A stretch of 64,000 nt of DNA from an uncultured Desulfobacter sp. (GCA_963665095.1 OY762069.1:2720001-2784000); one strand, 5' to 3'; shown: positions 10,220-27,755, counted from the first letter of the stretch. Notes: generated by a model not told the origin, from the letters alone. Program-made: numbers and translations.

Positions 10220-12217
10220 ATGAAACTAGTACACTACTTAAAATTATCCTTCCCTGCTGTAAGTATTATACTAAGTTTTTGTATCATCCTGCTGGTCGCA
10301 CAAAACCTTTCGGCCATGGAAAAAGAAATCTATAAAATAGGGATCCCGACAGACAAAGCGCCCTACTCCTTTACCGCCTGGTCCAAAAGCGGAATAAAGC
10401 TTCGGGGGGCCTATATTGATGTCATGACCCAGATTGCCCATCACATGGGTGTAGAATTCCAGTATGTGAAATCCGGCAATCCAACAATGATGATACAGCT
10501 TTTCAATGAAAAGAAGATCGATATCATAGGCATGACCCTGGAACAGGTCTTTCCTTATCATATTAAAAATTTAACTACGATCCCGGTAGGCCTTAACATG
10601 ACCTCCTGGATCTTTGTCAACCATTGTTGTAAAACCATTGTCTGCCAGAAAGACCTGCCCGGCAAACGGGTTTCCATCATCGGCTTTGAGGCGCTTGGGT
10701 TATGGCCCTATGACATGTTAGACGTGTCTGACATTTTCCCGGTCCAGACACCTCTGGAAGGGCTGACCCTGTTAAACGAGGGGCGGATACACGCCTTTAT
10801 TGCACCGTCAGAAGAGATTGCCAGCTACATTATTCACAAACATGGTTTTGAAAACGTGCGCAGGGTCGGCCTTGCCCTGAGAAAAATACCACTGGCCCTT
10901 TCCCTGGACAGAGAAGATACCCGGTTAACAGGCCGGCTGCTTGAAGCCATAGGGAAAACCATGTCATCAGGTATTATCCGCCAGATCGAAGAAAAATGGT
11001 ATGGGGTTGAGTTTAAACGCTCCTTTTTTGAAAAATACAGCCGTCTTGTTTTTTCTGTCATTGGGTTTACGGTGCTGGTTCTGGGCCTTGTTGTTATCTG
11101 GAACAATGAGTTGAAAAGGCAGGTAAAAAAAATCACGGCCCAGTATCGAACATCGGAAAACAGGTCCCGAAACCTGATCGAATCATCACCGGATATGATA
11201 TTTGTTGTGGACCGGGCAGCCAGAATCTATAATATGAACAGGGAGGCACAGGCTTTGATGCCAAAAGGGCTTGCCAAAGGGTTTCTTCCCCGCCTGACGG
11301 ATATGGTTCCCCCTGCAGACAAAAAATCAATTTCACTCTTCCTGGAAACCGTATTCTCCACAAACCGGGCAACCAAAGAGCTCCGGTTCAAAAGGCCCGA
11401 TTCAGGGTACAGGGAGATTGATGTTGCCGCCACCCTGCTTCCCTCGGAGCCCGGTGAAGAACCAAGAGCCTGTTTGTTTGCCAGAGATGTCACCCGGAAA
11501 AACCGGATTGAACGGGACCTGGTTCAAGCCGACCGCATGGCCCTGATCGGGCAGATGGCTGCGGATATTGCCCATGAGATTAACAATCCGATCGGTATCG
11601 TCAGAGCAAACATTGATGTGATCCTCGCCCGGGGCTGGTATACACCGGAAGCAAAGGAGTTTTTAGAGTCCTGCAAACGAAATACCGACCGCGCCGGTAA
11701 ATTTACAAAGGATCTTCTGGCAATGGCCAGGCCAAAGGATCCGGAGATGGCGGAACTGAACCTGTGGGAACTGGTCAACGCCACCATTGAAATCATGGGT
11801 GCCCAGTTAAAAAATGTCACCATCCAGAAGCAGACCAGGGGAGGTCCTGCACAAATTATCGGTGACCGCAACCTGTTACAGCAGGTTCTGGTCAACCTTC
11901 TTTTAAATGCCGCCGCCGCCACCAAAAAAGTAGCCGTCCCTGAAATAAAAATTACCAGCTGCGTCCCCAGCGGGCTTGACATGGTTTGTCTCAGAATTGA
12001 AGATAATGGAATCGGCATCCCCAAACAGCATTTAACAGAAATTTTTGAGCCTTTTTTCACACAGGGCAAAAAAGAGGGCTTCGGCCTTGGCCTTTTTATT
12101 TCCAAAAGAATTATAGAAAACCACAACGGCATGATTTACGCTGAGTCCGAGGTGGGTGTCGGCACCCAGATGGTCATCGAACTACCTTTGATTATAACAG
12201 ATCCTTTCACTTCCTGA
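10220..12217 (+). CDS. Sensor histidine kinase with periplasmic solute-binding domain and PAS domain
   Basis: Signal/TM, SBP_bac_3-like region ending IEEKWYG, TM, PAS (ESSPDMIFVVD), H-box IAHEINNP, N/G boxes DNGIGI and GFGLGL. Confidence 0.92.
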   Translation: MKLVHYLKLSFPAVSIILSFCIILLVAQNLSAMEKEIYKIGIPTDKAPYSFTAWSKSGIKLRGAYIDVMTQIAHHMGVEFQYVKSGNPTMMIQLFNEKKIDIIGMTLEQVFPYHIKNLTTIPVGLNMTSWIFVNHCCKTIVCQKDLPGKRVSIIGFEALGLWPYDMLDVSDIFPVQTPLEGLTLLNEGRIHAFIAPSEEIASYIIHKHGFENVRRVGLALRKIPLALSLDREDTRLTGRLLEAIGKTMSSGIIRQIEEKWYGVEFKRSFFEKYSRLVFSVIGFTVLVLGLVVIWNNELKRQVKKITAQYRTSENRSRNLIESSPDMIFVVDRAARIYNMNREAQALMPKGLAKGFLPRLTDMVPPADKKSISLFLETVFSTNRATKELRFKRPDSGYREIDVAATLLPSEPGEEPRACLFARDVTRKNRIERDLVQADRMALIGQMAADIAHEINNPIGIVRANIDVILARGWYTPEAKEFLESCKRNTDRAGKFTKDLLAMARPKDPEMAELNLWELVNATIEIMGAQLKNVTIQKQTRGGPAQIIGDRNLLQQVLVNLLLNAAAATKKVAVPEIKITSCVPSGLDMVCLRIEDNGIGIPKQHLTEIFEPFFTQGKKEGFGLGLFISKRIIENHNGMIYAESEVGVGTQMVIELPLIITDPFTS

Positions 12218-12300
12218 ATCAAATCCAAACCTGAACCTTTTTCCGGAAAACGGTTCCTGCCCCCCCCCTGAACCACACTTCTTCCCCATGGTGTTTCCCC

Positions 12301-12350
12301 TGTGCTTTAAGGAGCACACCATTGCCTGAATGTGTGCATCTGACCGCACA
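12301..12350. promoter_or_regulatory. Tandem palindromic enhancer-like sites TGTGC-N8-GCACA (12301-12318, 12333-12350)
   Basis: Two perfect copies 32 bp apart, about 100 bp upstream of a sigma54-like promoter; degenerate copies at 10075, 24007, 24135 and 24166. Confidence 0.65.
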
Positions 12351-12424
12351 GACCGTATTGTATGTCATCCTTTACAGCCCGTTTTCCCCATTACTTTAAG
12401 GGAGTTAGATTTTAAAATATCACG

Positions 12425-12440
12425 TGGTACGATTTTTGTA
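12425..12440 (+). promoter_or_regulatory. Putative sigma54 (-24/-12) promoter
   Basis: TGGTACGATTTTTGTA versus consensus TGGCACGNNNNTTGCW; GG-N10 spacing kept, -12 is GT rather than GC. Confidence 0.55.
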
Positions 12441-12533
12441 ATCGTATGTTCCATGCGTTTATGAGCGTGAACACAGAAGTGAACGTTGACACAGAACCGG
12501 CGAACAAAACGAGTTTAATGAGGTAAAAAATTA

Positions 12534-15467
12534 ATGAATCTGAAGTGTAAAACCCAAACAATGAAAAACGCTCAATTGTTGTTCATATTTTTGCTGGTCT
12601 TTTTTCTGGGCTGGGCCGAACCAGGTATAGCGTCGGCGCCAAAAGATCCCCACGGACTGCAGCCGGCAGACGACATGGTGTTCCTTCCCAAACTTGCCGG
12701 CCTGCGGAACAAGACCTACAAGAACCAGTCCGGCAAGAAAAAGGCCCTGTCCGAAGCCCTTGTCCTTCGCCAGAGCAAAATAGAAAACAACAAGGCACAG
12801 GTATCGCCCGGAGGGCTGTTCTACATCTCGGAAACCAGCAATGATGCCCAGCCTTTTCACAGGGATCCGTTCCTTATTTTAGGAGAGCACTGTTACCTGG
12901 TGGATTTGTCCACAGATACCCATATAGTAAGGAATTTCAAGGTAAACATCGGGGACAGGGAACCGGTGAAGGATACTGGATACCGGATCTGGTACGACTA
13001 TGCCACGGATCACTATGAAAAACCATACGGCGAGTTTGCCCTGATTGCGCCTTCCGGGGGCTGGCCCCTGGAATTTCCGATATCCTCTTCTTTTCCCGGC
13101 AGGCAGGAGACCCGGGACTTGAATTCCGGTGAGGGATATGTGGACCAGCTGATCAAATTTTACCTGGATAAGGATTATTACTACGGGGCCATGCATTTTA
13201 AAGCCAGAGACATTGGTTTTGAAACAGCTGAATTTGAACGCTTTGAATTTCCCGCCATCACAAAGGCTACCTTTTCAATGCACCGCCCCATTTTCCTGGA
13301 CCTCCGCCAGGAGGATTATCGGCTCTACTTTGATAAAAGAATTTACGCATTCCGGCGGGCCGACGGATTTCTTGTCCGGGTGACCGATTTTTTCGGGAAA
13401 AAGGTATTTGCAGAAAAACTGGTCAAGCCGGTGACGGGACAAGGGTATAAGACCCTGATGTCGGAAAAGGATAAATACCATCTGACCATACCAAAGCTGG
13501 ATATCCGCATTGAAATTATGATCCAGCCGGAATTTATGAAAAATTCCGATTTCATGCCCTGGTCAACGGGAAAATCTCACGGATTCGGCAAGGGTGTACT
13601 GAACTTTGTGGTGTACCGGAAGCTGATCAAGGTTGAAAACGGACGCGCCTGGCCCCTGGATGACCGCTACAATGTGCGGCTCGAACCCAGCATGCTCACG
13701 GGAATGCTCAAACGACTGGTCATTGAAAACGCCCAGCCCGTTGTTTTTGACAATGAACATCCTACTTTTGACGGACCGGTAAAGTGGTCGGATATATACA
13801 ACAGGCCGGCATTCCAGGTCACGGCAGATAATTTCGAAGACAACCTGGTTAAAAATCTCTATGTCAGAGACTACTACATGATGCGTACGGACAACATGGT
13901 ATTCTGGGAAAAAGAGGGCCGGGAAAACATCGATTTTTTTGTGGGCTCATCACCCGTGCTGGAACCTATCCTGGAGGATACCTTTCTGACCCGCCTGGCA
14001 GACCCATCCTTTGGCGTGGTGGTGGAAAAATCCCATTTCACCTCTTATCCCAAAGCAATCAGTGATGCCTCCTTTTACGAGCCTGACCATACGGCCCCCT
14101 TTGTACCCCGCCTCAAAGGGCTGAAAAGGAAATTTGTCAGAAACAGAAAAAAGGAACGGCTGATCTCATCGGAGAGCGTGTTTATCCGGGGCAGTTACGT
14201 TGACTGGCGGAGAAATCAGATTATCATCCCGCCGGCAGGACTGTGCTACTCCACCAGAAATGCCAGAAATATCAGAACCCTGGCCGGGGAGTCCTTTTTC
14301 ATGCTGGGAAAACAGGCCTATCTGACCTCTTTCAAGTCATCCACTTTTGTTAAAAAAAATTTTGACGTGGATTTCTGGAAAAACCAGCCCATGGATGGCG
14401 GTAACCTCATGTACTGGCAGGATGAACTGTTAGGCGTCCGGAACAAGGCCCTGCGCATGACCGGTTTTCACTACCTGGATGACAGGCCGGTATCTGAGCT
14501 GAGTCTGATGAAATATTCAGGTAACCGGTGGGGGGCACATTTTCTCATGGCCCAGGGCCTGGACCCTGAAGGCGGAAACCGGTATCACCTGCCTGAAATC
14601 TTCGCTGAGGGATCCACCTGGATTATTCCGGAATATACGGGATCGAACTATATCAAAATCAAAGAGTTCGGCACGCCTTCCATCGAAGCCATCAGCTTTA
14701 CCTATACCAAACCCCGGGAAGCGGTTCTTGGCGCAGGAGATGAGGCCAGACTGGGTAAATACAGACTGGTGTGTACATTCATTGACATAGAGGCCGGCAC
14801 CATCGGCCTGGAATTAAAGGATGAGACCGGCAGTATCGTGGCATCCAAAATTCTGGGCCCCCTGGATGAGGGAGCTCTGCAACTGCTGCCCCAGCACCAG
14901 ACAGTGGCCAAGTCCATGCAGTTCATGTTTGAAGACCTGCAGGCGGAGCTGGACATTCTTACCCCCTTTAAAAAAGGAAAGGCTCAACTCTATCTTTTCA
15001 CGGATATTGAATTCCTGGAAAGAGATACCCCTTTCAATTTCGACAACCGCTTTATGGTCCGGCCGGATGTGTGCGGGCATTGCTATCAGCTCAACGAGGT
15101 TCTTTTGGATAATCCGGAACCGATTATCCTGGACATGAAAAACCCGGTTTACGATGGCCCCAGACGTGAAGACGGCACCCCGTTGTTCCGTATTGTCATT
15201 GACGATTTCGACGGTGAGATGCTCCATGCCTGGCACATGGAGACCGATGACGGGGACGGTATTGAAAAAACCGAAAACCTGGCGTTCAGGCCAAGGAACA
15301 ACCTGGATGTACTGGTGGGGGTCACCGGCACCACCGAAGGCTTTTTAAGGTTATCCATGCTGCCCCGCTTAGGATTTATCGAATCCTGGCGGACCAGTGC
15401 CAAAGCATCTGCAACCAAACTGTCCGGATCGGTTAACACCGGCGGTAGTGCCCATATCAGACGATAG
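12534..15467 (+). CDS. Large secreted hypothetical protein with two homologous halves and a CGHC motif
   Basis: 977-aa ORF, signal peptide; internal repeat (FLPKLAGL..PGGLFY vs FVPRLKGL..PAGLCY; RENIDFFVG vs RNNLDVLVG); RPDVCGHCYQ. Confidence 0.8.
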   Translation: MNLKCKTQTMKNAQLLFIFLLVFFLGWAEPGIASAPKDPHGLQPADDMVFLPKLAGLRNKTYKNQSGKKKALSEALVLRQSKIENNKAQVSPGGLFYISETSNDAQPFHRDPFLILGEHCYLVDLSTDTHIVRNFKVNIGDREPVKDTGYRIWYDYATDHYEKPYGEFALIAPSGGWPLEFPISSSFPGRQETRDLNSGEGYVDQLIKFYLDKDYYYGAMHFKARDIGFETAEFERFEFPAITKATFSMHRPIFLDLRQEDYRLYFDKRIYAFRRADGFLVRVTDFFGKKVFAEKLVKPVTGQGYKTLMSEKDKYHLTIPKLDIRIEIMIQPEFMKNSDFMPWSTGKSHGFGKGVLNFVVYRKLIKVENGRAWPLDDRYNVRLEPSMLTGMLKRLVIENAQPVVFDNEHPTFDGPVKWSDIYNRPAFQVTADNFEDNLVKNLYVRDYYMMRTDNMVFWEKEGRENIDFFVGSSPVLEPILEDTFLTRLADPSFGVVVEKSHFTSYPKAISDASFYEPDHTAPFVPRLKGLKRKFVRNRKKERLISSESVFIRGSYVDWRRNQIIIPPAGLCYSTRNARNIRTLAGESFFMLGKQAYLTSFKSSTFVKKNFDVDFWKNQPMDGGNLMYWQDELLGVRNKALRMTGFHYLDDRPVSELSLMKYSGNRWGAHFLMAQGLDPEGGNRYHLPEIFAEGSTWIIPEYTGSNYIKIKEFGTPSIEAISFTYTKPREAVLGAGDEARLGKYRLVCTFIDIEAGTIGLELKDETGSIVASKILGPLDEGALQLLPQHQTVAKSMQFMFEDLQAELDILTPFKKGKAQLYLFTDIEFLERDTPFNFDNRFMVRPDVCGHCYQLNEVLLDNPEPIILDMKNPVYDGPRREDGTPLFRIVIDDFDGEMLHAWHMETDDGDGIEKTENLAFRPRNNLDVLVGVTGTTEGFLRLSMLPRLGFIESWRTSAKASATKLSGSVNTGGSAHIRR

Positions 15468-15482
15468 AAAGGAAAATTCATT

Positions 15483-16649
15483 ATGCCAACCACTGTCTCA
15501 TCCGCTCCGGGCAGCTACAATCAGAGAAGACGATCCTTTCTGAGTTCTCTGTACACATTTAAAGAAGCACTTCCCGGTCTTCTGGCCATGCTTTTCATAG
15601 CGGTATTTGCCAACAACATGCCCGGGGTTCCCAATGCCTTTACCCTGCAGAACCTGTTCCGATGGATGGATGGCGTTGCCGGTCCTTTTAACCATCAGCC
15701 CCTGTTTCAGATCCTGAATTCAAACTTTGTCTGGAATCCCCTGCTTTTAGGGCTTATTATCGGAAACCTGTTTGGTGTGCCGGATATCTGGAAACGGGGT
15801 TTAAGCTATATCCACCTGCTCATGCCTTTGGGGATCATCATGCTGGCGCCCCATTTCATGGTTTTCCATGCCTTCAAGATCGGGGTTCTGCCCATTCTTA
15901 TCTGCACCCTGGCTCTGTTCGCCACAGCCAGTATTACCCTCTATGTAACCAAATGGATGAACCTGGATGACCGTCACGGATCCATTATCGCAGGCGGCCT
16001 TGCCACAGGGGATCCCCATGCCTGCGCCATCCTCATGCCTTTGATCAAAGCACCGGGGGCCCAGGTGGTCAATGCAGTCTTCGGGGTGATCACATGGGGG
16101 CTGATCGCCATGGTCCTGGTTCCCCTATTCGGGCAGATGATGGGTATTCCTGAGAAATATCTGGGGCTTGCTGCAGTGACGGCGGTGGGGAACGGCCACC
16201 AGGCCCTGTATGCCGGTTATGCAGCCGGGTACGAAGCCGGGCGGTATGCCTGCTGGTTTGATGTGGGGCGTCATGTCATCATGCCTTCGGGATTCATCTA
16301 TGTGTTCACGGTAATGTTTATCAGAAAACTGAAAAACAGAAATAACCCGGAAATCAGAGCCACCCGGGGCATAAAAACCTTCCCGATCTGGCTGGGTGTA
16401 TTTATTTTCTGCTGGATACTGTCTTGTCTCCATCTGTTTAAGGAACCGGCCCATCATGCCATATTCAACATGGTCAGATGGGATTTCTCCCTGGCAGCCG
16501 CGGCCTTAGGCTTAAGCCTGTCCTTTAAGGATATCGCCAGGGCCGGCATTAAAGGGTTTCTGGTAACGGCCATTTCAGGATCCATCCGGATCGTGCTGGT
16601 TCTTGGGACAATTTTAATCTGTTTTAAGGCGGGATGGTTTCCGGCCTGA
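15483..16649 (+). CDS. YeiH-like (putative sulfate exporter family) multipass membrane protein
   Basis: About 10 hydrophobic segments, LLLGLIIGN, FPIWLGVF, AAAALGLSLSFKDIARAGIKGF typical of the YeiH/UPF0324 C-terminus. Confidence 0.7.
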   Translation: MPTTVSSAPGSYNQRRRSFLSSLYTFKEALPGLLAMLFIAVFANNMPGVPNAFTLQNLFRWMDGVAGPFNHQPLFQILNSNFVWNPLLLGLIIGNLFGVPDIWKRGLSYIHLLMPLGIIMLAPHFMVFHAFKIGVLPILICTLALFATASITLYVTKWMNLDDRHGSIIAGGLATGDPHACAILMPLIKAPGAQVVNAVFGVITWGLIAMVLVPLFGQMMGIPEKYLGLAAVTAVGNGHQALYAGYAAGYEAGRYACWFDVGRHVIMPSGFIYVFTVMFIRKLKNRNNPEIRATRGIKTFPIWLGVFIFCWILSCLHLFKEPAHHAIFNMVRWDFSLAAAALGLSLSFKDIARAGIKGFLVTAISGSIRIVLVLGTILICFKAGWFPA

Positions 16650-16662
16650 GGGGCGAATCGCT

Positions 16663-16815
16663 ATGGAAAGAAATATGCACACCACAGATGAAGCAGGGTT
16701 TGACTATATGGCCAACACAGGCATGGAAGAACAGGACAGGGATACATGCGGCATGGCCATTGCGCTGATCATTATGACTGTTCTGACCATCTGCCAATAT
16801 CTGGGGCTGTACTAA
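16663..16815 (+). CDS. Small (50 aa) single-TM hypothetical protein
   Basis: Manual translation MERNMHTTDEAGFDYMANTGMEEQDRDTCGMAIALIIMTVLTICQYLGLY; operon-like spacing; below the ORF-track cut-off. Confidence 0.5.
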   Translation: MERNMHTTDEAGFDYMANTGMEEQDRDTCGMAIALIIMTVLTICQYLGLY

Positions 16816-16828: not shown

Positions 16829-17041
16829 TTGGAGCGTTTGTTTATGTTTTCCGCAATTATTTTTGTCTGCCTCATGCTCCTGCTTTTTCTGGCCGGCGGG
16901 GCAGCCGTTCACATGGGAGTATTTAAATCCCACAAACAGGGAAAATCCCTGGCATCAAAAACCATTACCGGGATCCTGTCCTATGGGTTTTCCGCTGTGT
17001 TCTGGTTTTTCAGTTATACCCATTTTTATCTGGGCTGGTAG
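16829..17041 (+). CDS. Small two-TM hypothetical membrane protein
   Basis: 70-aa ORF with two hydrophobic stretches, co-oriented within the cluster. Confidence 0.55.
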   Translation: MERLFMFSAIIFVCLMLLLFLAGGAAVHMGVFKSHKQGKSLASKTITGILSYGFSAVFWFFSYTHFYLGW

Positions 17042-17141: not shown

Positions 17142-17444
17142 ATGACATTAGAAAAATGGATTGTAGCTCTTCTTGTAAGCGTATTTCTTCTTGTGAACAC
17201 AGGCTTAGGGGTTGCATCGGACGACAAGGCCGGGAAGATAAATTTGAACACGGCCACCAAGGAACAACTCATTGGTCTGGGCATGGATGAGGATACCGCC
17301 AATGCCGTACTGGAGCACAGAAAAGAAAACGGAGAATTTGTGGATATTGAGGAACTGCTCGATATAGAGGGCATTGATAATAATATGATCCGGCAGCTTA
17401 AAAAGAAAATCTATATAGAGGGTGTCAAGGGATGCAATTGTTAA
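17142..17444 (+). CDS. Secreted helix-hairpin-helix (ComEA/HHH_3-like) protein 1, C-terminal GCNC
   Basis: Signal peptide, KINLNTATKEQL, HRKENGEFVDIEELLDIEGI. Confidence 0.85.
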   Translation: MTLEKWIVALLVSVFLLVNTGLGVASDDKAGKINLNTATKEQLIGLGMDEDTANAVLEHRKENGEFVDIEELLDIEGIDNNMIRQLKKKIYIEGVKGCNC

Positions 17445-17469: not shown

Positions 17470-18618
17470 ATGAATACAAATAGACGATACAGATTTTATA
17501 TTGCCCTTGCGCTTCTGGCTTTCCCCCTTTGGGTGAATGCCGAAATTTTGGGGAATTACATGGGATACGAGGCCTGCATCAAATGCCATGAAGAAATTGT
17601 CCAGGGCTGGAAAACCACGCCCCATGCCAATGCGTTTGAAACGCTTAAGGAACAGGGCGAGGAGAAACAGTCCATCCCCGGGTGTTTCAAATGTCATGTG
17701 GTGGGCTTTGAAGAAGATGGCGGTTTTGTGGATATGGCACTTACCCCGGAATTAAAAGATGTCCAGTGTGAAAACTGCCATGGGCCGGCCAGAAAGCACG
17801 TTGAAAGTGAAGGGAATCCGGATCTTATCATTGGATCTCCAAACGAAGCTTCCTGCCGGATCTGCCATACCACAGGCCAGGATAAAAACTTTGACTTTAA
17901 GAAAAAAAGTCAGTGGGTCCACGCCGCAAAGGGTGCCGATGGAAAAATGGGAAAGACCCAGGCCAAGGCCGTTGAAATTCTGAATTTCAGTGAAACCCGG
18001 GTGGAATTTGGCAACATGGTTGAAGGGGACATTGTTAAAAAAAAGGTAACCGTGACCAACACGGGAAACAAGACCGTCACACTGACCAACCTGACCACGT
18101 CGTGTGCGTGCACGTCGGCTACACTGGGTAAGCGTGAACTTCAACCCAGGGAATCCACGGAGCTGGAAATTACCTACTATACCTATAAATTTCCCGGCAA
18201 ATTTGCCAAATTTATTACCGTATTTACTGACATCCCGGGCAAGGACCAGTACCGGGTGGACATCAACGGTTTTGTCAAGGCCATTCCCATGGGCGTGCTT
18301 GAGGTCCAGCCAAGAAAAATCGCCCTGGGTGAAAATCTGAAAACCGGCACGCCCCTGCCCTTTACCATATCAATCACCAATACAGGGGATGCAGAGATGA
18401 AAATTACCAAAATTGTATCCAAAAAAAGAAAAACCCTGTTTTTTGATTCTGACCGAACCGGGGAATTAATTATTAAACCGGGTGACACAGCCAATATTGA
18501 CACTGAAGTTATCTACGACAGCAAAGGACGGATGCTTGACTATATCATGATTCACTCCAATGCCCGAAACGTTACCTCACAAGGATATAAGGTAATATTG
18601 ACAGGAACGTTTGAATAA
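17470..18618 (+). CDS. Tetraheme c-type cytochrome (c554-like) fused to DUF1573/Ig-like domains
   Basis: Signal peptide; four CxxCH (CIKCH, CFKCH, CENCH, CRICH); then NTGNKTVTL..TTSCACT and a second NTGDAEMKI Ig-like domain. Confidence 0.88.
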   Translation: MNTNRRYRFYIALALLAFPLWVNAEILGNYMGYEACIKCHEEIVQGWKTTPHANAFETLKEQGEEKQSIPGCFKCHVVGFEEDGGFVDMALTPELKDVQCENCHGPARKHVESEGNPDLIIGSPNEASCRICHTTGQDKNFDFKKKSQWVHAAKGADGKMGKTQAKAVEILNFSETRVEFGNMVEGDIVKKKVTVTNTGNKTVTLTNLTTSCACTSATLGKRELQPRESTELEITYYTYKFPGKFAKFITVFTDIPGKDQYRVDINGFVKAIPMGVLEVQPRKIALGENLKTGTPLPFTISITNTGDAEMKITKIVSKKRKTLFFDSDRTGELIIKPGDTANIDTEVIYDSKGRMLDYIMIHSNARNVTSQGYKVILTGTFE

Positions 18619-18703
18619 AAGTACCACTTAACGCGTCCCCTTTGCTTTATCCGGATCCGGAAAAGCAAAGGGGATAACATGCTGAAAGGAGTTGATAAGA
18701 AAA

Positions 18704-20223: not shown

Positions 20224-20565
20224 ATGTTTAAACCCGCACGACTTCTTACATATGGCATTTTCTGTTTTTTGGCAGTTCTTCTGTTTAGCCCGGCCATGGC
20301 AGGAGATGGCATTATCAGCCTGAACAAGGCAGATCTTCAAGAGATCAAAGCACTGTTTGTTGATGAACTCGATCTTCCCGAAGAGCTTGCAAGGTCCCTT
20401 GTGGAATATCGCAAGGCCAACGGTAGCTTCAAATCACCCGAGGACCTGATCAAGGTGCCGGGTATGACCCAGGATTTTATCGAAGAGATCAACCCGCAGC
20501 TCATTGACAATGACGTGGTTTACGATCCGGATGCAGAACCGGCACTGGCGCCTTCGAAATGCTGA
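20224..20565 (+). CDS. Secreted HhH protein 2, C-terminal PALAPSKC
   Basis: Signal peptide, ISLNKA, YRKANGSFKSPEDLIKVPGM. Confidence 0.82.
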   Translation: MFKPARLLTYGIFCFLAVLLFSPAMAGDGIISLNKADLQEIKALFVDELDLPEELARSLVEYRKANGSFKSPEDLIKVPGMTQDFIEEINPQLIDNDVVYDPDAEPALAPSKC

Positions 20566-20613: not shown

Positions 20614-20952
20614 ATGAAATCATTAACCGGAAAAATATTTTTTGCACTGCTCTTCATGGCCGTCACCTTTATTTCGTCCGGTGCTCAGGCTGGCGTAGAG
20701 GATGACTTTATCAGTTTTAATACGGCCCCGGCATCGGAATTCCTGAAAATTCAAATTGTACAGGTCCCTGAGGCCGTAGCCAACGCCATTGTCAAGTACC
20801 GGGAAGCAAACGGCCCCTACAAAACCCCTGAAGATCTCAAAAAGGTCCCCGGAATGACGGATGACCTGTTCGATGCCCTTGATCCCATCGAGGAAGAGGG
20901 AGACATCGTGTTTGAAAAAGCCGGCGGCCCCGGCGGGATGAACGCTTATTAA
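20614..20952 (+). CDS. Secreted HhH protein 3, C-terminal AGGPGGMNAY
   Basis: Signal peptide, ISFNTA, YREANGPYKTPEDLKKVPGM; paralogue of the 20224 protein. Confidence 0.82.
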   Translation: MKSLTGKIFFALLFMAVTFISSGAQAGVEDDFISFNTAPASEFLKIQIVQVPEAVANAIVKYREANGPYKTPEDLKKVPGMTDDLFDALDPIEEEGDIVFEKAGGPGGMNAY

Positions 20953-21029: not shown

Positions 21030-22394
21030 ATGAAAAAGAAAGTTCTGCTGCCCCTGCTCCTTGTCTTTGCCTGGATGAGCACGGCCAGTGCATATGAAGC
21101 TTTTACCGGCCCCACCGGGGTCCTTCACTGGGACAAAAAAAAGGCCTATGAAGGGTATACCTTGTTTGCCCCCATGGTCAACTGCACGACCACCTACCTT
21201 ATAGATATGGAGGGCAATGTTGTCCATACCTGGGAAAGCAAATTTCCTCCCGGACTCTATGCCGAGCTTCTTCCCAACGGAAATCTGCTCAGGGCAGCCA
21301 CGCTTCCCAGAAAATCCAAAAAGGGATACTGCGGAATCGGCGGTGCCGGCGGACTGATCGAAGAGATCGACTGGGACGGAAATGTGGTGTGGCGGTACAA
21401 ACTATGGGAAAAGAACAAGGAAATTCAGCACCATACTTTTTACCGGCTGCCCAACGGCAACACCATGATCCTTGCCTGGGAAGTAAAGCCCATACAGGAA
21501 GGCATTGATAAAGGAAGGGACCCTGCCACCCTGCCCGATAAACCGGTGACCCAGAAGGGTGTGCCCATGGACGACTGGTGGGTGGATTTTGTCCGGGAAG
21601 TAGATCCGGCCGGCAACACGGTCTGGGAATGGCATGTGTGGGATCATGTCGGCACAGGACCCGACCAGCTGGACATCAACTACAAGCTGCCTGATCCTGT
21701 TGGACTGACCTATCCCAACTGGGACTGGAGCCATTTCAACACCATTGATTATATTCCGGAAACCGATCAGGTGGTATTAAACTCCAGAAACTTTGCCGAG
21801 TTCTACTTCATCAACCACAAAACCGGTAAAATCGAGTACCGGTGGGGTAACCCTTCTGCCTATGGCAAGGGGAAAAGACCTTCCTGGTATGACAACGGAG
21901 ATCAGAAGGTGTTTGGCACCCATTGCTCCACAGTCCTTGAAAACGGAAATATCCTGCTTTTTGATAACGGATCCGAAGGTCCTGAGGAGAGACGGTCGGC
22001 CGTGTTTGAGATCAACCCCAAGACCGATGAGGTGGTATGGAAATTTGAACCCAAGCATACCAGCAGTTTCTTCTCCTACCGCCAGGGCGCGGCCCAGAGG
22101 CTTCCCAACGGGAATACCCTGGTTACCTCCACCCATGGGGGACATTTGTTTGAAATCAACAAACGGGGGGATGTGGTCTGGGATTATGTCAGCCCGGTAT
22201 TCAGCGGGAAAATGAAATGCGTGGCAGAAGATGATGACGCTTTCGACCGGAAATACCACCAGAACGGCATGACCAACATGATTCACCGGGCATACCGTTA
22301 CGGTGCGGATTATCCGGGGCTGAAAGGGAAAGACCTGAGTCAGAAAACGCCCATGGTCAAAGACTGCCCCGCATTTTTTAAGACATATAAATAA
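21030..22394 (+). CDS. ASST-family protein 2 (Sec signal)
   Basis: GYTLF, QHH, DWSHFNT, LNSRN, GTH, FDNG, GAAQRLPNGNTL, IHRAYR. Confidence 0.88.
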   Translation: MKKKVLLPLLLVFAWMSTASAYEAFTGPTGVLHWDKKKAYEGYTLFAPMVNCTTTYLIDMEGNVVHTWESKFPPGLYAELLPNGNLLRAATLPRKSKKGYCGIGGAGGLIEEIDWDGNVVWRYKLWEKNKEIQHHTFYRLPNGNTMILAWEVKPIQEGIDKGRDPATLPDKPVTQKGVPMDDWWVDFVREVDPAGNTVWEWHVWDHVGTGPDQLDINYKLPDPVGLTYPNWDWSHFNTIDYIPETDQVVLNSRNFAEFYFINHKTGKIEYRWGNPSAYGKGKRPSWYDNGDQKVFGTHCSTVLENGNILLFDNGSEGPEERRSAVFEINPKTDEVVWKFEPKHTSSFFSYRQGAAQRLPNGNTLVTSTHGGHLFEINKRGDVVWDYVSPVFSGKMKCVAEDDDAFDRKYHQNGMTNMIHRAYRYGADYPGLKGKDLSQKTPMVKDCPAFFKTYK

Positions 22395-22436
22395 CCGTTG
22401 GAAACATGTAAGGAAACGTTTTTTGTTATCTTTAAA

Positions 22437-22480
22437 GAACGCCGGTTCTCCTGATAAAGGCGGACCGGTGTTCTGCTTTG
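22437..22480 (+). terminator. Probable intrinsic terminator after ASST2
   Basis: GAACGCCGGTTC..GGACCGGTGTTC hairpin followed by TGCTTT. Confidence 0.5.
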
Positions 22481-22629
22481 AACAACGCTTTTGAGGATTT
22501 CATCTTGATAACCGGATGATCATAATCGTAATATGAAAGTGAAGTAAATATGTGCGTTTTGAGCGGCAACTGACCTGGTTATTTTTTGATGATGAATAAC
22601 AGCAGCCTGAAGCAGAGGAGAAAAATCCT

Positions 22630-23985
22630 ATGAAATATAATGTATTATTCATTGATGACGAAAAGGATTTTTTAACAGCTCTCAAGGGGTATTTTACCAT
22701 AAACTATGAAGTGCAGACGGCTGAATCAGGGGCTAAAGGACTGAGCCTTCTGGAGCAGACCCAGTTTGATGCTGTAGTTACGGATATGTCCATGCCCGGA
22801 GGAATGGATGGACTTGACGTGATCAGGGAAATCAGAAAAACAGACCCCCTTCTTCCCATTATCATCATGACAGGCGTTGGCACCATTAAAAATGCCGTTG
22901 AAGCCATCCAGCAGGGCGCCTTTCATTATATTACCAAACCCTTTGGTTCTGATGAGCTTGAAATCACCCTGCGCCGGGCCATTGAGAGCGGCCAGCTTCA
23001 CCGGCGGCTTGCCAGACAGGAAGGCGAATCCAGGAAGGACAACGATTATGTCTTCGGCTCAAGCCGTCAGATACAAGATATCATGCAGACAATTGACAAG
23101 GTGTCCGACTCTGATGCACCCATCCTTCTTTTGGGAGAAACCGGAACCGGAAAGTCCATGATAGCCAAACATATCCACAAGACAAGTACCCGGAAAGACA
23201 AGCCTTTGTTCACCATCGACTGTGCTGCCCTGGCAGAGACCCTTCTGGAAAGTGAACTCTTTGGGCATGTCAAAGGTGCTTTTACAGGCGCCGTCTCAGC
23301 CAAGCGCGGACTGTTGGAAGAGGCGTATGGCGGTACCATCCTGCTGGATGAAATCGGGGAGCTTTCCCCGTCCACCCAGGTCAAACTGCTCCGCGCAGTC
23401 CAGGAACTTGAAATCCGGCCGGTGGGGGGTAACCGGCCGGTGAGTATAGATGTCCGGTTTATATCGGCAACCAGCCGGAATCTGGAGGATGAAATAGAAA
23501 AAAACCTATTCAGAAAGGATCTATATTTCCGTCTGGCTGTTATCTCCTTAACCCTGCCCCCCCTAAGGCAAAGGAAATTTGATATTCCCCAGTTTGTGGC
23601 CCATTTCCTGGAAAAATTTAACCAACGGTACAAAAAAAGGATTACCCGGCTTGAACCCTCCGTCCTCCAGGACCTTCAACAATTGCCCTGGAAGGGAAAC
23701 ATCCGGGAACTGGAAAATACCATGGAGCGGATGGTGCTGCTGGCGGACCGTGACGTGGTCACCCGGGATCTGTTATATTTTTGTGATAAAAATAATTGTT
23801 GCCAGGAAACGGACACGCCCAACGACCACATCTCCTCCTTAAAAGAAGTGGTCCAGGATGCTGAAAGCCTGGCCATAAAGCAGGCCCTTGAGCTGACACA
23901 GGGCAACCGGACCCTGGCAGCCAAGCTTTTAGGTATCGGAAGGCGTACCCTCTACGTCAAGATGGAAACCTACGGAATTAACTGA
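22630..23985 (+). CDS. Sigma54-dependent response regulator (NtrC/AtoC type)
   Basis: Receiver domain (IDDE, TDMSMPG), GETGTGKS, GAFTGA, WKGNIRELEN, C-terminal Fis HTH. Confidence 0.95.
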   Translation: MKYNVLFIDDEKDFLTALKGYFTINYEVQTAESGAKGLSLLEQTQFDAVVTDMSMPGGMDGLDVIREIRKTDPLLPIIIMTGVGTIKNAVEAIQQGAFHYITKPFGSDELEITLRRAIESGQLHRRLARQEGESRKDNDYVFGSSRQIQDIMQTIDKVSDSDAPILLLGETGTGKSMIAKHIHKTSTRKDKPLFTIDCAALAETLLESELFGHVKGAFTGAVSAKRGLLEEAYGGTILLDEIGELSPSTQVKLLRAVQELEIRPVGGNRPVSIDVRFISATSRNLEDEIEKNLFRKDLYFRLAVISLTLPPLRQRKFDIPQFVAHFLEKFNQRYKKRITRLEPSVLQDLQQLPWKGNIRELENTMERMVLLADRDVVTRDLLYFCDKNNCCQETDTPNDHISSLKEVVQDAESLAIKQALELTQGNRTLAAKLLGIGRRTLYVKMETYGIN

Positions 23986-24300
23986 TCTGCAACCATATTT
24001 TTAAACTGTGCAAATCCGCGCGCAACTTTCCTGACAGCCGCACTCCCCTTGCCTTGCTTTTTTGCAGAATACTAGTAGATTACGATGGATGGTTCCATCC
24101 GGTTTCTTATAATTCCCTGCCGATCACCCACATCTGTGTATAATCCTGCACTCCCCAAAAGCGAATGTGCCGGAATCGATACTACTTCTTTCATCAGGCG
24201 GGGAAAGCCCTGCTTTCAATGGGGTTCATTCCAAAAAATACCGTTAGAATATTCTATCATCTCAACATATTAGAATAACGTTAGGCTGATCCAGGAGCAG

Positions 24301-24316
24301 TGGCATACCCCTTGCT
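24301..24316 (+). promoter_or_regulatory. Sigma54 (-24/-12) promoter for the porin-ASST3 operon
   Basis: TGGCATACCCCTTGCT, exact GG-N10-GC; degenerate TGTGC-N8-GCACA sites upstream at 24007, 24135 and 24166. Confidence 0.8.
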
Positions 24317-24448
24317 AAGTTATGGGTAATCAAGGACTAACGGAACATTTTAAACGCGATGTTGCAGGATGTTCCATTGAGGCGAGAGCCAAAGCCTCCC
24401 GAGGGGGGGTGTGTATTTCAGTTTACTTTTACTTTACACGGAGGAGAG

Positions 24449-25738
24449 ATGAAAAAGTCTTTTATTGCGACCTTAGCTTTGATTTGCTGCATGGTGTGGT
24501 CGGTCCCTGCATTTGCCGTGGATTTTGAGTATGGCGGTTATTGGAGGACACGTGCTTATACCATGAACGGATTCACCGGAGACGGTGATGATGAATCCCT
24601 TGATATGTCCAAGGTGGATGCCAGGGGACGGTTATGGACCAAACACATTATCAACGAGGAAACATCCTGGACAAACCGGATCGAGTTCAACGTGATCTGG
24701 GGGGATGAAGACAATGGCGGGGGCATTGCCACCGACGGTACAGACTATATCCGGTTCAAACACTCTTATATGGATTATGACACCACCGTATTTAATACAG
24801 ACATGCACTTAAGAATGGGTCTTCAGGGATTTACAGTGGCCAACGGCATGCTGTTTGATGATGATTTCGCCGGCCTGATCCTTTCCCACGAAGGCAGTAC
24901 CGCCACCCACAGATTCATCTGGATGAAAGTATTTGAAGGCAGCACGCTTTCCGGAGAATATGAAGAGGACCTGGAGGACCTGGATGTTGATTTCCTCGGG
25001 TTATCCTCCACTTTTAACTTCATGAACGATGCCCTGGCCCTGAACGCCTACGTCTTTTACCTGACCTCCGACGACGGCCGGGAGTGGTCTGCCACCACCG
25101 GAAACCAGGAGATCAGCGTTTATTATCTTGGCGCAGATATCAAGTACACCCTTGACAGCGGAAACATCTGGGGGGTTCTCCTGTATGAAGGCGGTTCCGC
25201 AGATGTTGTCAATTCAGATGTCGAATATGATATGAAGGCCTATATTGCAGCCCTTGGCGGAGAAATGAATCTGGGCAAAGTGGGCATCCATGGTCAGGTA
25301 TTCTATGCCAGCGGCGATGACGACCTCAGTGACACGGATGTAACAGGCTTTTACGTGCCAAGGGGCCAAAGCTACTACTGGTCTGAAATCATGGGCATGG
25401 GTGTATTTGATTACACAGCCAGCAGCGGTTCCCCGGCAGATACCATCTCCAATGTTGTTGCCGGCAACTTGGGTATCAGCTATGAGGTATCCCAGGACTT
25501 AAGCCTTACCGGCGATATCTGGCACGCCCGGCATGCAGATACCAACGTACTGGTCACAGAAAAGACGCTGGGTACGGAAATTGACCTTCGGGCCGATTAT
25601 AAAATCAATGAAGACCTCAACCTGGTCGTGGTGGGGGCATACCTGTTTGCCGATGATGCAACCACCATGGGTGCCGATGACGCGTCTGATGTCTATGAAA
25701 TCGGCATGCAGTTATCCTTTAGTTTCAGTACCCTCTAA
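24449..25738 (+). CDS. Outer-membrane beta-barrel porin (deltaproteobacterial type)
   Basis: RBS GGAGG, signal peptide, GGYWRTR, LGTEIDLRADYKI, GAYLFA, amphipathic terminal strand QLSFSF. Confidence 0.75.
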   Translation: MKKSFIATLALICCMVWSVPAFAVDFEYGGYWRTRAYTMNGFTGDGDDESLDMSKVDARGRLWTKHIINEETSWTNRIEFNVIWGDEDNGGGIATDGTDYIRFKHSYMDYDTTVFNTDMHLRMGLQGFTVANGMLFDDDFAGLILSHEGSTATHRFIWMKVFEGSTLSGEYEEDLEDLDVDFLGLSSTFNFMNDALALNAYVFYLTSDDGREWSATTGNQEISVYYLGADIKYTLDSGNIWGVLLYEGGSADVVNSDVEYDMKAYIAALGGEMNLGKVGIHGQVFYASGDDDLSDTDVTGFYVPRGQSYYWSEIMGMGVFDYTASSGSPADTISNVVAGNLGISYEVSQDLSLTGDIWHARHADTNVLVTEKTLGTEIDLRADYKINEDLNLVVVGAYLFADDATTMGADDASDVYEIGMQLSFSFSTL

Positions 25739-25759
25739 TCACATGAAAGGAATCATCAC

Positions 25760-27685
25760 ATGAAAAAAATCCTTTTGGTGCTGACTGTGACTTTGATGGC
25801 CTCGGCAGCCTATGCTGCATCCCAGTTCTACAGCGCCACCGAATTGAACTACCACAACCCGGATACAGCCTATCAAGGGTATACCCTGTTTCATTCCATG
25901 AACGGGGAACAGACCACCTTCCTCATTGACATGGAAGGCCAGGTGGTCCATGCCTGGCCCATGGATGCTGACAAGTGGTCCATATCCAACAGTGTTCATT
26001 TTTATGAAAACGGGCTTCTTTTGAGGACCCAGACGCCCCAGTACGTGGGCAAATTCAAACTGGGATCCAGTGGTGGCAATCCCATGCTCGGAACCGTTTA
26101 TAAATTTTTAGACTGGGATAACAATGAAGTTTATTCCGTACGCCATCCTTTGCACAAGGATCCCACCGAAGCAGAGCTCCAACAGATATTCGGCCTTACT
26201 GATGATCAGATGAATGATCAGACAGCCATTGATGCGGCAGTGGCAGCCATGACCACAGCCCAGCAAGAAGAGATCAAGGCGCTTATCGACTACCGGGAAC
26301 ACCATGACGCAAAGATGATCTGGAATAAAAACTTAGGCAAATACACCATCATGTTTATTGCCAATAAAAAATTAACCGAGGAAGAGGTGCTCAACGCTGG
26401 TCAGGACCCTGATCTTGTGGATGTATCCACGATCTCTTCCTATCCCCACCTGGTTGATACGGACGTGATCGCTGAAGTCGATATCCAGACCGGAGAGCTG
26501 ATCTGGCAATGGTGGAGCGGGGATCATCTGATCCAGAACTACAGCGAGACTGCGGACAACTATGCCCAGGATATTGCAGACTGGTACTATGATGGGGATC
26601 TGCAGGAAGCCCATTACCACCGTCTGGATATCAATCATAAAAACAATCAGGGAATTTTCGGCCTGCGGGAAGACTTTTTTCACACCAACTCCTTTGACTA
26701 CAATGCCGATCGGGACGAGGTGGTATTGAATTCCAGGACATTCTCCGAATTTTTCGTCATTGACCATTCCAAGACCACAGAAGAGCTCAAGGGTAAAGCA
26801 GGCGACTTTTTATGGCGGTTCGGATCGCCCAGCAACTATTCATCCAAAGACCAGCTCGGAGAGGACCACGCGGATGTGGTTGCCTATCCCGGGGCCCGGG
26901 ACGCGTCTCTGGACCAGATTTACGGCGCCCACGACATTCACTGGATTCCAGAGGGGGAACCCGGTGCCGGCCATTTTATGATCTATGACAACGGTATTTT
27001 CCGTCCTGTATACCAGAACTCTGCCGTGCTGGAGATCAACCCCTACGATGACAACGGCAATTACATCCGGGAGCTGGATGCCGGCTACAAAACCAGCATG
27101 ATGCTCTATCCGGGAGCTATTGGCGCTGGCACATTTATGTACGGGTCCTATTTCAGTACAACCGTTAATTACATGAAGCCCTCCAACCTCATCACCTGGG
27201 CGTTTACCAGCAACTCCTGGAATTTTTTCGGCCCCCATATTTCAGGGTGCCAGCGTCTGGCCAATGGAAACACCCTGATCTGTGACGGCCCCAACGGCCA
27301 TTTCTTTGAAGTGACCACAGAGGGCCGGGTGGTCTGGGAGTACACAAGTCCTCTGTATGGAAGCACCATGTCCATGCCCGCCCTGAAAATCTTCGGAGAC
27401 CAGACCAGCATGTATATCGGCGCCACCACAAACAGCGGATTGACCTATGACGGGCAGGAGATCATCGGTGGCAGCGGCTTCTTTAACAGTGTTTTCCGCG
27501 CCTACCGGTATGGAACGGATTTTGCCGGTTTTTCCGGTAAGAATCTCGTGCCCATGGGTACGGTTGTGGAATATATGCAAAATGATGGAACACCATCATT
27601 CACCGGATTCGGATTCGGCGGAGGGATAGGCGGTTCCGGCGGTTCCGGCGGCGGTGGTGCCGGCGGTTCCGGCGGTGGATACTAA
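25760..27685 (+). CDS. ASST-family protein 3 with insertions and a Gly-rich C-terminal tail ending in Tyr
   Basis: GYTLF, EHHD, DFFHTNS, LNSRT, GAHD, YDNG, ISGCQRLANGNTLI, VFRAYRY; tail GGGIGGSGGSGGGGAGGSGGGY. Confidence 0.85.
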   Translation: MKKILLVLTVTLMASAAYAASQFYSATELNYHNPDTAYQGYTLFHSMNGEQTTFLIDMEGQVVHAWPMDADKWSISNSVHFYENGLLLRTQTPQYVGKFKLGSSGGNPMLGTVYKFLDWDNNEVYSVRHPLHKDPTEAELQQIFGLTDDQMNDQTAIDAAVAAMTTAQQEEIKALIDYREHHDAKMIWNKNLGKYTIMFIANKKLTEEEVLNAGQDPDLVDVSTISSYPHLVDTDVIAEVDIQTGELIWQWWSGDHLIQNYSETADNYAQDIADWYYDGDLQEAHYHRLDINHKNNQGIFGLREDFFHTNSFDYNADRDEVVLNSRTFSEFFVIDHSKTTEELKGKAGDFLWRFGSPSNYSSKDQLGEDHADVVAYPGARDASLDQIYGAHDIHWIPEGEPGAGHFMIYDNGIFRPVYQNSAVLEINPYDDNGNYIRELDAGYKTSMMLYPGAIGAGTFMYGSYFSTTVNYMKPSNLITWAFTSNSWNFFGPHISGCQRLANGNTLICDGPNGHFFEVTTEGRVVWEYTSPLYGSTMSMPALKIFGDQTSMYIGATTNSGLTYDGQEIIGGSGFFNSVFRAYRYGTDFAGFSGKNLVPMGTVVEYMQNDGTPSFTGFGFGGGIGGSGGSGGGGAGGSGGGY

Positions 27686-27712
27686 TACCGACCTGAAGAC
27701 CCCATCAACCTG

Positions 27713-27755
27713 ATAACCGGGCGCTGCACAATGATGTGCAGCGCCCGTTATTTTT
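27713..27755 (+). terminator. Intrinsic terminator ending the ASST cluster
   Basis: CGGGCGCTGCACA-ATGA-TGTGCAGCGCCCG followed by TTATTTTT. Confidence 0.8.

Follow-up and report, generated by a model that had tools for sequence, protein, structure and literature searches.

The DNA considered here is a stretch of 64,000 nucleotides from an uncultured Desulfobacter sp. (GCA_963665095.1 OY762069.1:2720001-2784000), called the window below, with positions counted from its first letter. Our subject is a cluster of 14 intact genes within it, all on the + strand between 10220 and 27685, which encodes three enzymes of the arylsulfate sulfotransferase (ASST) family alongside small secreted helix-hairpin-helix (HhH) proteins, redox proteins, a candidate transporter and regulators. 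The gene order is kinase, BIG, YeiH-like gene, two small membrane genes, HhH1, cytochrome c554-Ig, ASST1, HhH2, HhH3, ASST2, sigma54 regulator, porin and ASST3, BIG being our name for a large secreted protein of 977 amino acids. Family calls rest on Pfam and NCBIfam searches with their cut-offs, and signal peptides were judged by eye, with no predictor. The assembly of the stretch is supported by one contig of run X1 (a possible source of this DNA) that spans it and by two contigs of run X3 that cover it, in both cases with 0 differences.

The genes around which our interpretation is built are these:

12534..15467, +, BIG, secreted, 977 amino acids; tandem duplication of a module of ~430 amino acids of no known family; predicted thiol/selenol redox protein and candidate for a sulfite-releasing step
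17142..17444, +, HhH1, secreted, acidic, ending G-C-N-C-stop; predicted to shuttle electrons through its dithiol
17470..18618, +, c554-type cytochrome with four hemes, continued by tandem Ig (DUF1573) domains in one fusion protein; C212-A-C214 at 18103-18111 is a selenocysteine/cysteine site
18692..20149, +, ASST1, Tat-type signal; H138/H239/N241/R272/H322; the most conserved ASST; predicted Tyr-to-Cys transfer enzyme
20224..20565, +, HhH2, secreted, acidic, ending P-S-K-C-stop; predicted S-sulfonate carrier
20614..20952, +, HhH3, secreted, acidic, ending G-G-M-N-A-Y-stop; predicted to serve the tail-less ASST2 as a separate Tyr-O-sulfate arm
21030..22394, +, ASST2, Sec-type signal; H135/H235/N237/R253/H298; tail-less here; predicted substrate-loading enzyme
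25760..27685, +, ASST3, Sec-type signal; H182/H308/N310/R326/H391; C-terminus a long, Gly-rich arm with Tyr as last residue; predicted accessory loading enzyme

An earlier note on this DNA had described co-oriented, intact genes, and every gene that it named is indeed intact and on the + strand. Its inventory was incomplete by the two small membrane genes (16663-16815 and 16844-17041), which each recur in 43/50 of the loci introduced below. The family searches agree with most of its calls: three ASST-family proteins (PF05935 above cut-off in 3/3) that all carry the motif series it had listed, three secreted HhH proteins (HHH_3 above cut-off in 3/3), a fusion of Cytochrome_C554 with four CxxCH motifs to DUF1573, a YeiH-like membrane protein (PF03601 above cut-off), and an SBP_bac_3/PAS histidine kinase with a sigma54 response regulator.

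Distribution and conservation of the cluster

A search of a genome collection with a profile of BIG gave 124 matching stretches, and the best 80 of these 124 resolved into 50 distinct loci, 23 of which are at least 22 kb long and are referred to as full-length. By their record titles the hosts are Desulfobacterota (several families), gut Mailhella and Acidobacteriota. The YeiH-like gene directly follows BIG in 46/50 loci, the other four stopping at a contig edge; an HhH gene with a C-x-C tail is present in 41/50 and an ASST gene in 36/50, while all 23 full-length loci contain both a YeiH-like gene and an ASST. Conservation of the gene neighbourhood, which the earlier note had proposed as a check, is thus seen in 50 loci.

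We also searched a sample of 301 genomes of the window's phylum, which was not seeded by neighbourhood. The system is thus real and patchy, present in about 2% of the sample. Duplicated BIG occurs in 6/301 genomes (in one of them split over two contigs); relatives with a single module were seen in 2 other genomes and, as an additional copy, in one of the carriers. Top-tier matches to ASST1 and full-length matches to the PSKC-tailed HhH protein fall in the same 5 of 6 BIG carriers, adjoining BIG. The cluster was not found in the one same-family genome searched. Two loci, L056 and L061, share 22.8 kb at 96.5% DNA identity, though their records are titled Desulfatiglandales and Anaerovoracaceae, and the 'Anaerovoracaceae' genome of L061 gave no dsrA, aprA or sat match. 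L061 may reflect a binning error or a recent transfer; it was kept in all counts and is not counted as a third phylum.

The ASST enzymes

Against PF05935 (cut-off 24.2 bits) the three window enzymes score 75, 84 and 57 bits. A profile of 31 cluster ASSTs matches 9KF4/9KF6 (E 5e-18) and E. coli AssT 3ELQ (E 5e-14) in the PDB, the latter over an alignment limited to AssT residues 177-526. The AssT active site comprises His252, His356, Asn358, Arg374 and His436 (accessible text of PMC13426309). H252, H356, N358, R374 and H436 all correspond to conserved columns of our profile, with His436 matched in 31/31 and His252 in 28/31 of the cluster sequences, and in the sequence alignment all five residues are present in the three window enzymes, which agrees with the AssT-like active site that the earlier note had expected. 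AssT Thr501, a residue of the sulfuryl site, aligns to a non-Thr position of the profile and to Gln in 9KF4. By domain and catalytic residues, we take the enzymes to be members of the ASST family.

The three paralogues differ in conservation and in their C-termini. ASST1 is 58-83% identical among orthologues and ends in Tyr in 0/20 of them; a PSKC-tailed HhH gene follows it within 200 bp in 20/24 loci, and the other four stop at the locus edge. A terminal Tyr is found in 15/20 complete ASST2 orthologues of at least 55% identity and in 0/9 at 44-54% identity. Of the 22 closest non-self homologues of ASST3 (at least 40% identity), 21 finish with a Gly-rich arm that bears a terminal Tyr, compared with 4/70 terminal Tyr among the ASST3 matches ranked 51-120. 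The earlier note's assignment of one Tat and two Sec signals holds for the window, where ASST1 has a Tat-type signal, and does not generalise: 15/21 ASST1 orthologue N-termini carry such a signal, and we rejected Tat export as a required feature.

Related genes were seen elsewhere. The window's genome encodes one more ASST-like protein, its fourth, which is distant and has no Tyr tail (C1:5134266-5135705). Locus L066 (8390-14390, genome G079) holds a smaller related module with a signal-less ASST1-like gene, a transporter of the Na:sulfate symporter family, a porin related to that of the window and a secreted ASST2-like gene, and in L067 (8209-17852, genome G059) a signal-less ASST1-like gene lies near a TRAP-like transporter and glycine-cleavage-like genes (by eye).

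One alternative interpretation is an enlarged analogue of assT-dsbL-dsbI in which the ASSTs would shuffle sulfate between small phenols while the Cys motifs and the cytochrome form a disulfide-forming folding system. The CGHC motif of BIG is of dithiol-oxidoreductase type. E. coli AssT needs the operon-encoded DsbL/DsbI (accessible text of PMC13426309). The E. coli CFT073 system (3ELQ; PMC13426309) further resembles the cluster in its ASST family (a propeller family), its periplasmic location, as predicted for the cluster, the five active-site residues and the thiol-redox genes alongside. However, no cysteine falls in a column of the ASST alignments that is invariant or nearly so, oxidative folding offers no place for a single terminal Cys or for terminal Tyr arms, and neither Pfam nor NCBIfam finds a thioredoxin-fold or DsbB match among the cluster proteins. 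The cluster also differs from AssT-DsbL/DsbI in having several ASST paralogues that appear to divide the work, Tyr and Cys tails borne on proteins, a cytochrome or molybdoenzyme, and a transporter. We consider the Dsb-like interpretation improbable.

HhH proteins and C-terminal tails

The most conspicuous feature of the HhH proteins is their last few residues. Among 77 HhH matches, a C-x-C end is seen 41 times, a P-S-K-C end 24 times and a terminal Tyr 10 times, the remainder being one frameshift fragment and one sequence with a run of N; the background of 1985 other open reading frames, which are mostly spurious, contains 3 CxC, 55 C, 32 Y and 1 MxxY ends. Residues P84, S85, K86 and C87 are invariant in 22/22 aligned HhH2 homologues, and 9/10 Tyr-ended homologues finish in M-x-x-Y. 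The CxC gene of HhH1 type usually lies beside the redox module where a locus has one.

The Tyr tail appears to move between scaffolds. In many loci an M-x-[A/S]-Y end closes an acidic tail of ASST2, while in the window, where ASST2 is tail-less, it is found on HhH3. Where both the ASST2 tail and HhH3 are missing (L022, L025, L056, L061, L063, also L052 and L070), an unrelated secreted protein of ~165 amino acids ends in Tyr, and other Tyr-ended secreted proteins are encoded in L036 (160 amino acids) and L069 (188 amino acids). Altogether, a terminal-Tyr arm is present in 23/23 full-length loci, whether its carrier is an ASST, one of the HhH proteins or some unrelated scaffold. Since ASSTs sulfate tyrosine-containing peptides (accessible text of PMC13426309), the most plausible role for an unattached Tyr at the end of a flexible arm would be that of a built-in phenolic acceptor.

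The HhH fold itself invites a different view, in which the proteins would bind DNA as ComEA does and the locus would take part in DNA uptake: HHH_3 is above cut-off in all three, and ComEA structures are among their nearest PDB matches. Yet TIGR00426 and TIGR01259 stay below cut-off, the GxG hairpin is present in 1/75 cluster HhH proteins as opposed to 18/20 ComEA-like controls from other genomes, none of these controls (0/20) ends in C or Y, the median isoelectric point of the cluster proteins is about 4.3, and the genome carries a separate ComEA-like gene with KGIG. We rejected DNA uptake on the GxG count, the acidic isoelectric point and the separate gene, and regard it as barely credible.

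The large protein BIG

BIG is a tandem duplication: its halves align with an hhalign probability of 99.9 (E 7e-34). The C847-G-H-C850 motif (15072-15083) is found in the second module only, and CxHC is conserved in 119/120 BIG homologues, the exception being a partial protein. In three single-module relatives an in-frame TGA falls exactly at the C847 position, with the frame open to the second Cys, and 21/150 database representatives end just before this position, their stop codons being unseen. We found no Pfam or NCBIfam match for BIG, none to an NCBIfam model among 9 relatives scanned, no credible PDB sequence match with two profiles and no usable ESM Atlas match for BIG or P0046; Src/Hck kinase matches of the BIG profiles in the PDB (E>=0.087) were regarded as chance. 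The single-module relatives are a candidate selenoprotein family for which Pfam and NCBIfam hold no model. Those with TGA (L006/L068, L008/L071 and L009) lie beside a TonB-dependent receptor or an aldehyde:ferredoxin oxidoreductase, and upstream frames in L006 and L009 end in P-D-x-G-C-stop.

Could BIG instead be an S-layer-like surface protein, with the ASSTs sulfating it or other surface targets? Its tandem duplication would suit such envelope modification, and so would weak PF07752 matches in 1/32 orthologues and 1/25 distant relatives. Both matches are below cut-off and the window protein has none (0 matches), for which reason membership of the Methanosarcina-type S-layer family (PF07752) was rejected. 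A mean column identity of 60% across families and a CxxC motif aligned with selenocysteine are better suited to an enzyme, and glycosyltransferase or 3'-phosphoadenosine-5'-phosphosulfate (PAPS) genes were not recognised among the recurrent cluster members. Envelope modification therefore seems very improbable to us.

Within BIG, a contig of run X6, from a near-identical strain, carries most of 40 listed substitutions out of 96 at 14304-14825 (window 14300-14900), together with a compensating -1/+1 indel pair at 14876/14879, whereas other long X6 contigs differ by at most one letter. This substitution cluster possibly represents a local allele exchange.

Two interchangeable redox modules

The cytochrome has four CxxCH motifs and a PF13435 match, and it matches 1BVB in the PDB (E 6e-11); against the CycA equivalog model it stays below cut-off. 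In most loci cytochrome and Ig protein are separate genes, the fusion being seen also in L016. Of 24 homologues aligned at the Ig site, 13 read stop-x-C and 11 read C-x-C; in 9/9 examined, the TGA is followed by a conserved hairpin about 16 nt downstream, and the window genome has Cys. The window Ig protein scores 52.8 bits against NF041425 (cut-off 100). In the accessible part of PMC13188914, DUF1573 is listed as a selenoprotein family, and its DUF1573/OS_HP2 proteins share with the cluster a selenocysteine motif within the DUF1573 domain. MccSep (bioRxiv 2025.11.18.688581, accessible part) likewise joins heme c and selenocysteine in periplasmic sulfur reduction. Compared with both, the selenocysteine/cysteine site of the cluster is on the Ig domain, not at the heme site, the window genome has Cys, and the UxxC family of BIG is unmodelled in NCBIfam. 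Selenocysteine aligned to both Cys motifs, in BIG and in the Ig protein, points to redox catalysis and not to structure. A stand-alone c554-like cytochrome is encoded elsewhere in the genome (C1:1938344-1938787), and a small secreted protein directly follows the Ig gene in L016 (16284-16703, PDZ by Pfam) and in L070 (16812-17198).

A Tat-type molybdoenzyme stands in for c554/Ig in L053, L059, L069 and two further genomes of the sample; in L069 the module consists of a molybdenum (Mo) subunit, a 4Fe-4S subunit and NrfD. None of the 50 loci has both modules. At E<=1e-100 the molybdoenzyme was found in 3/301 genomes, all of them BIG carriers and all in the BIG locus. Of the 6 duplicated-BIG carriers, three have the molybdoenzyme in the locus and three have c554/Ig. 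The Mo subunit scores 194 and 244 bits against PhsA NF012032 (cut-off 694) and passes no NCBIfam cut-off. In a Mailhella locus (L075, 96-1226) a cluster-type molybdoenzyme stands apart from BIG, after a lipoate-ligase-like gene and before iron-sulfur (FeS) and membrane subunits (by eye).

The PhsA/Psr-type look of this module (Mo, 4Fe-4S and NrfD in L069) raises the question of whether the donor might be an S-SO3 or N-SO3 compound (thiosulfate, polythionate, S-sulfocysteine or sulfamate) from which sulfite would still be released. Carriers tipped with Cys also resemble SoxY. Nevertheless, the Mo subunit lies far under the PhsA cut-off, and the Tyr arm found in every full-length locus implies that an aryl-O-sulfate is formed on the way, which would be needless with an S-donor. 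Rhodanese, TusA, DsrE and YeeE were not recognised among the recurrent neighbours, for which no dedicated scan was made. Such a donor is, in our judgement, decidedly unlikely.

Transport, regulation and flanking DNA

The remaining features of the cluster are as follows:

10220..12217, +, sensor histidine kinase with periplasmic solute-binding SBP_bac_3, PAS, HisKA and HATPase domains (Pfam)
12425..12440, +, sigma54 -24/-12-like site before BIG, 10/12 consensus positions
15483..16649, +, inner-membrane protein resembling YeiH/PSE, a candidate for sulfite transport
16663..16815, +, small membrane protein of 50 amino acids with one helix; tblastn matches in 43/50 loci; no Pfam/NCBIfam match
16844..17041, +, small membrane protein of 65 amino acids; tblastn E<=0.01 in 43/50 loci
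22630..23985, +, sigma54-dependent response regulator of NtrC type (Pfam)
24301..24316, +, sigma54 -24/-12-like site before porin-ASST3, 10/12 positions, GG and GC intact
24449..25738 (frame open from 24359), +, outer-membrane porin-like protein, weak Alginate_exp match; accessory
27718-27747, +, intrinsic-terminator-like hairpin closing the cluster; 13 pairs, 10 of them G-C, and a T-run

With 94 bits against PF03601 (cut-off 24.5) and 42 bits against TIGR00698, below its cut-off of 232.6, the YeiH-like protein is classed by its scores as a divergent subfamily of YeiH/PSE. YeiH has been tied to sulfite in Salmonella (accessible text of PMC12880088).

The porin named in the earlier note exists, with an Alginate_exp match that is weak (E 8e-4) and below cut-off, and it is not a conserved member: the window porin has no match in any of the 50 loci, which led us to reject it as a core component. 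A 34% paralogue is found elsewhere in the genome, and a distant homologue sits between two ASST genes in L066. Because the porin is unmatched and no close ASST3 homologue was found in the 50 loci either (the best being about 24-30% over long alignments), we regard the porin-ASST3 pair as an accessory unit of the window genome.

Kinase and sigma54 regulator have homologues in 16/23 and 20/23 full-length loci, respectively. A sigma54-like site with a score of at least 10 precedes BIG in 28/40 loci, compared with 0/233 coding windows, coding DNA being an imperfect control. Counts of sigma70 sites (27 vs 22.0) and of terminators (25 vs 22.6) are at chance level, and the single strong hairpin was retained. 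Directly past it (window 28651-34969) are three tyrosine-recombinase-like genes and a transposase and ATPase pair (by eye) in DNA of 43-47% GC. To the left of the cluster (window 582-9463) lie an ABC transporter, a LysR regulator and phosphonoacetaldehyde hydrolase / aminoethylphosphonate transaminase-like genes (by eye), which are absent among the recurrent neighbours of the cluster in other loci.

Sulfur metabolism of the carriers

In the window genome and 49 other carriers, dsrA was found in 44/50 (41 over cut-off), aprA in 26 and sat in 28; the window's own genome has all three. The 11 carriers titled Mailhella, records for which no completeness figures are given, have sat in 0, aprA in 0 and dsrA in 7, and for six carriers grouped with Mailhella post hoc by synteny the numbers are 0, 0 and 6. 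A separate family sample of 201 genomes contains 6 carriers, two of which are 98% complete and have no sat match. Carriers without sat indicate that the system is independent of adenosine-5'-phosphosulfate (APS) and PAPS.

Mailhella lives on sulfite from organosulfonates (accessible text of PMC13219744). Sheet S17 of the supplement, cited in that text for a Mailhella metagenome-assembled genome, contains transcripts for three ASSTs, one HhH protein and one YeiH; their locus tags are non-adjacent and not attributable to the cluster, and they were left unused. The accessible main text of PMC9888536 does not mention a sulfotransferase.

Discussion

The earlier note had proposed that a porin admits an organosulfate, that ASSTs relay the sulfuryl group, that a cytochrome couples this to electron flow and that the YeiH-like protein moves a sulfur oxyanion. 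Part of this outlook survives, notably the co-occurrence of the genes, the AssT-like site and the link to sulfur oxyanions. What has changed is that the cytochrome is interchangeable, that the porin is not core, and that the HhH and CGHC proteins, to which no role had been given, appear to be core components, as tailed carriers and as a selenocysteine/cysteine redox protein. Considering the gene set, its conservation, the catalytic residues, the invariant tails, the selenocysteine/cysteine sites, the module swap and the co-occurrence with dsrA, we propose that the secreted ASSTs and the tailed HhH proteins form a periplasmic swinging-arm relay which would convert an organic, probably aryl, sulfate ester into sulfite for DsrAB. 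Our confidence in this relay is evenly balanced.

In such a relay, the loading enzymes ASST2 and ASST3 would be sulfurylated on His by the donor and would pass the SO3 group to a C-terminal Tyr arm, their own or that of HhH3. ASST1 would then take SO3 from the Tyr-O-sulfate and load it onto the C-terminal Cys of HhH2; the sulfur of the resulting Cys-S-SO3- would be attacked by the CGHC motif of BIG, freeing sulfite and leaving BIG as a disulfide. The CxC tail of HhH1 may re-reduce this disulfide with electrons from the cytochrome c554 and the (U/C)xC Ig protein, or from the complex of molybdoenzyme, FeS protein and membrane anchor. Sulfite would finally be carried inward to DsrAB by YeiH and the two small membrane proteins, and the whole would be induced through the ligand-sensing kinase and the sigma54 activator. 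The net reaction would be ArOSO3- + 2e- -> ArOH + sulfite, with Sat and Apr bypassed. We are least sure of the order of the second to fourth steps (transfer to Cys, release of sulfite, re-reduction): linkage of the genes speaks for the pairings (ASST1-HhH2, HhH1-redox module and BIG-YeiH), not for the step order.

The energetics of such a chain deserve a comment. Hydrolysis energies of aryl sulfates and of S-sulfocysteine are both near -60 kJ/mol, and alkyl sulfates are poorer donors. The Tyr-to-Cys step should therefore lie near equilibrium, and sulfite removal would pull the chain. We found no published free energies of the proposed steps in the literature.

Several observations weigh against this proposal. 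In the accessible text of the ASST literature searched there is no precedent for a protein thiol that accepts the group from sulfo-His or sulfo-Tyr, and from the same energies it follows that the reverse direction is feasible. Characterised YeiH protects against sulfite and is read as an exporter (accessible parts of PMC12880088 and bioRxiv 2026.04.22.720190). At the thresholds used, 7/23 full-length loci have neither redox module, and a molybdoenzyme orthologue is present elsewhere in just 3/5 Mailhella-group genomes searched. One carrier, G028, has neither a top-tier ASST1 nor a PSKC match, and instead a different ASST ~3 kb from BIG. No ASST was seen in the 18-kb surroundings read for two single-module selenocysteine relatives of BIG, and a single module is therefore not specific to this chemistry. 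As for the hosts, dsrA is expected anyway in most Desulfobacterota, the Mailhella genomes are one related and partly incomplete group, and carriers are not enriched among genomes without sat (4/137 sat-positive vs 2/64 sat-negative in the 201-genome sample), so that the cluster is not a marker of sat loss.

Some of these points can be turned into a scheme that runs in the oxidative direction. Sulfite exported by YeiH would cleave a periplasmic disulfide to give Cys-S-SO3-, and the ASSTs would use their Tyr arms to sulfate phenols or other acceptors, a PAPS-free sulfation or detoxification with electrons passing to the cytochrome. It accommodates the description of YeiH as a protein of sulfite resistance and export, the carriers with neither sat nor a detected APS/PAPS source, and a Tyr-O to Cys-S step near equilibrium, and every part of the system is direction-neutral. 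On the other hand, organisms that live on sulfite, such as Mailhella (accessible text of PMC13219744), would spend their own electron acceptor, and the several divergent Tyr-tailed ASST paralogues, with a porin beside ASST3, suit a range of donors, although a range of acceptors is also possible. We consider the oxidative direction unlikely.

How does the proposed relay compare with known sulfur systems? Sox/SoxYZ is likewise a periplasmic multienzyme system with a small carrier that holds a sulfur oxyanion on a C-terminal Cys and with c-type cytochromes or a molybdoenzyme for electrons; in the cluster, by contrast, the carriers are HhH folds, there is an extra Tyr arm, ASSTs take the place of SoxAX/SoxB and reduction, not oxidation, is predicted, and no Pfam or NCBIfam match to SoxY/Z/A/X/B/C/D was found. 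The assimilatory APS/PAPS reductase CysH with thioredoxin also takes a sulfuryl group onto Cys as an S-sulfonate from which a dithiol releases sulfite. CysH, however, is a single cytoplasmic enzyme with an ATP-activated nucleotide donor, whereas the donor of the cluster would be an external ester, and no common family was detected. In the organosulfonate respiration of Bilophila, Taurinivorans and Mailhella (accessible parts of PMC10507020 and PMC13219744), organic sulfur provides sulfite for DsrAB in organisms unable to respire sulfate, and Mailhella genomes bear the present cluster; there, lyases cut C-S bonds, while the cluster would handle periplasmic O-sulfate esters. By its families, the system falls outside assT-dsbL-dsbI, Sox and the competence machinery. 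Its working would come closest to that of a Sox-type carrier arm combined with sulfite release of the CysH type.

In agreement with the earlier note, which knew of no characterised pathway with this gene set, full-text literature searches returned no description of it, within a coverage that left subscription journals mostly, and bioRxiv supplements as well, outside reach. What we describe is a real, conserved periplasmic system that is apparently new to the literature, and the BIG relatives look like a selenoprotein family outside the Pfam and NCBIfam models. More tentatively, and with somewhat less than even confidence, we suggest an undescribed anaerobic sulfate-ester respiration, in which a relay of His-, Tyr-O- and Cys-S-sulfuryl carriers would save the group-transfer energy of aryl sulfates and deliver sulfite to DsrAB without ATP by way of an unmodelled selenocysteine/cysteine family, such that gut Mailhella without sulfate activation may respire phase-II conjugates of the host, such as p-cresyl or indoxyl sulfate, to H2S and phenols.

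For most bacterial ASSTs, the literature gives the natural donors, acceptors and roles as unknown (accessible parts of PMC13426309 and PMC12809581), and the cluster supplies testable candidates for natural acceptors in the form of protein Tyr and Cys tails. If the reductive relay is true, sulfate esters would join organosulfonates as sources of electron acceptor that need no sulfate activation, with a bearing on sediment sulfur cycling, on gut H2S and on the deconjugation of host and drug metabolites.

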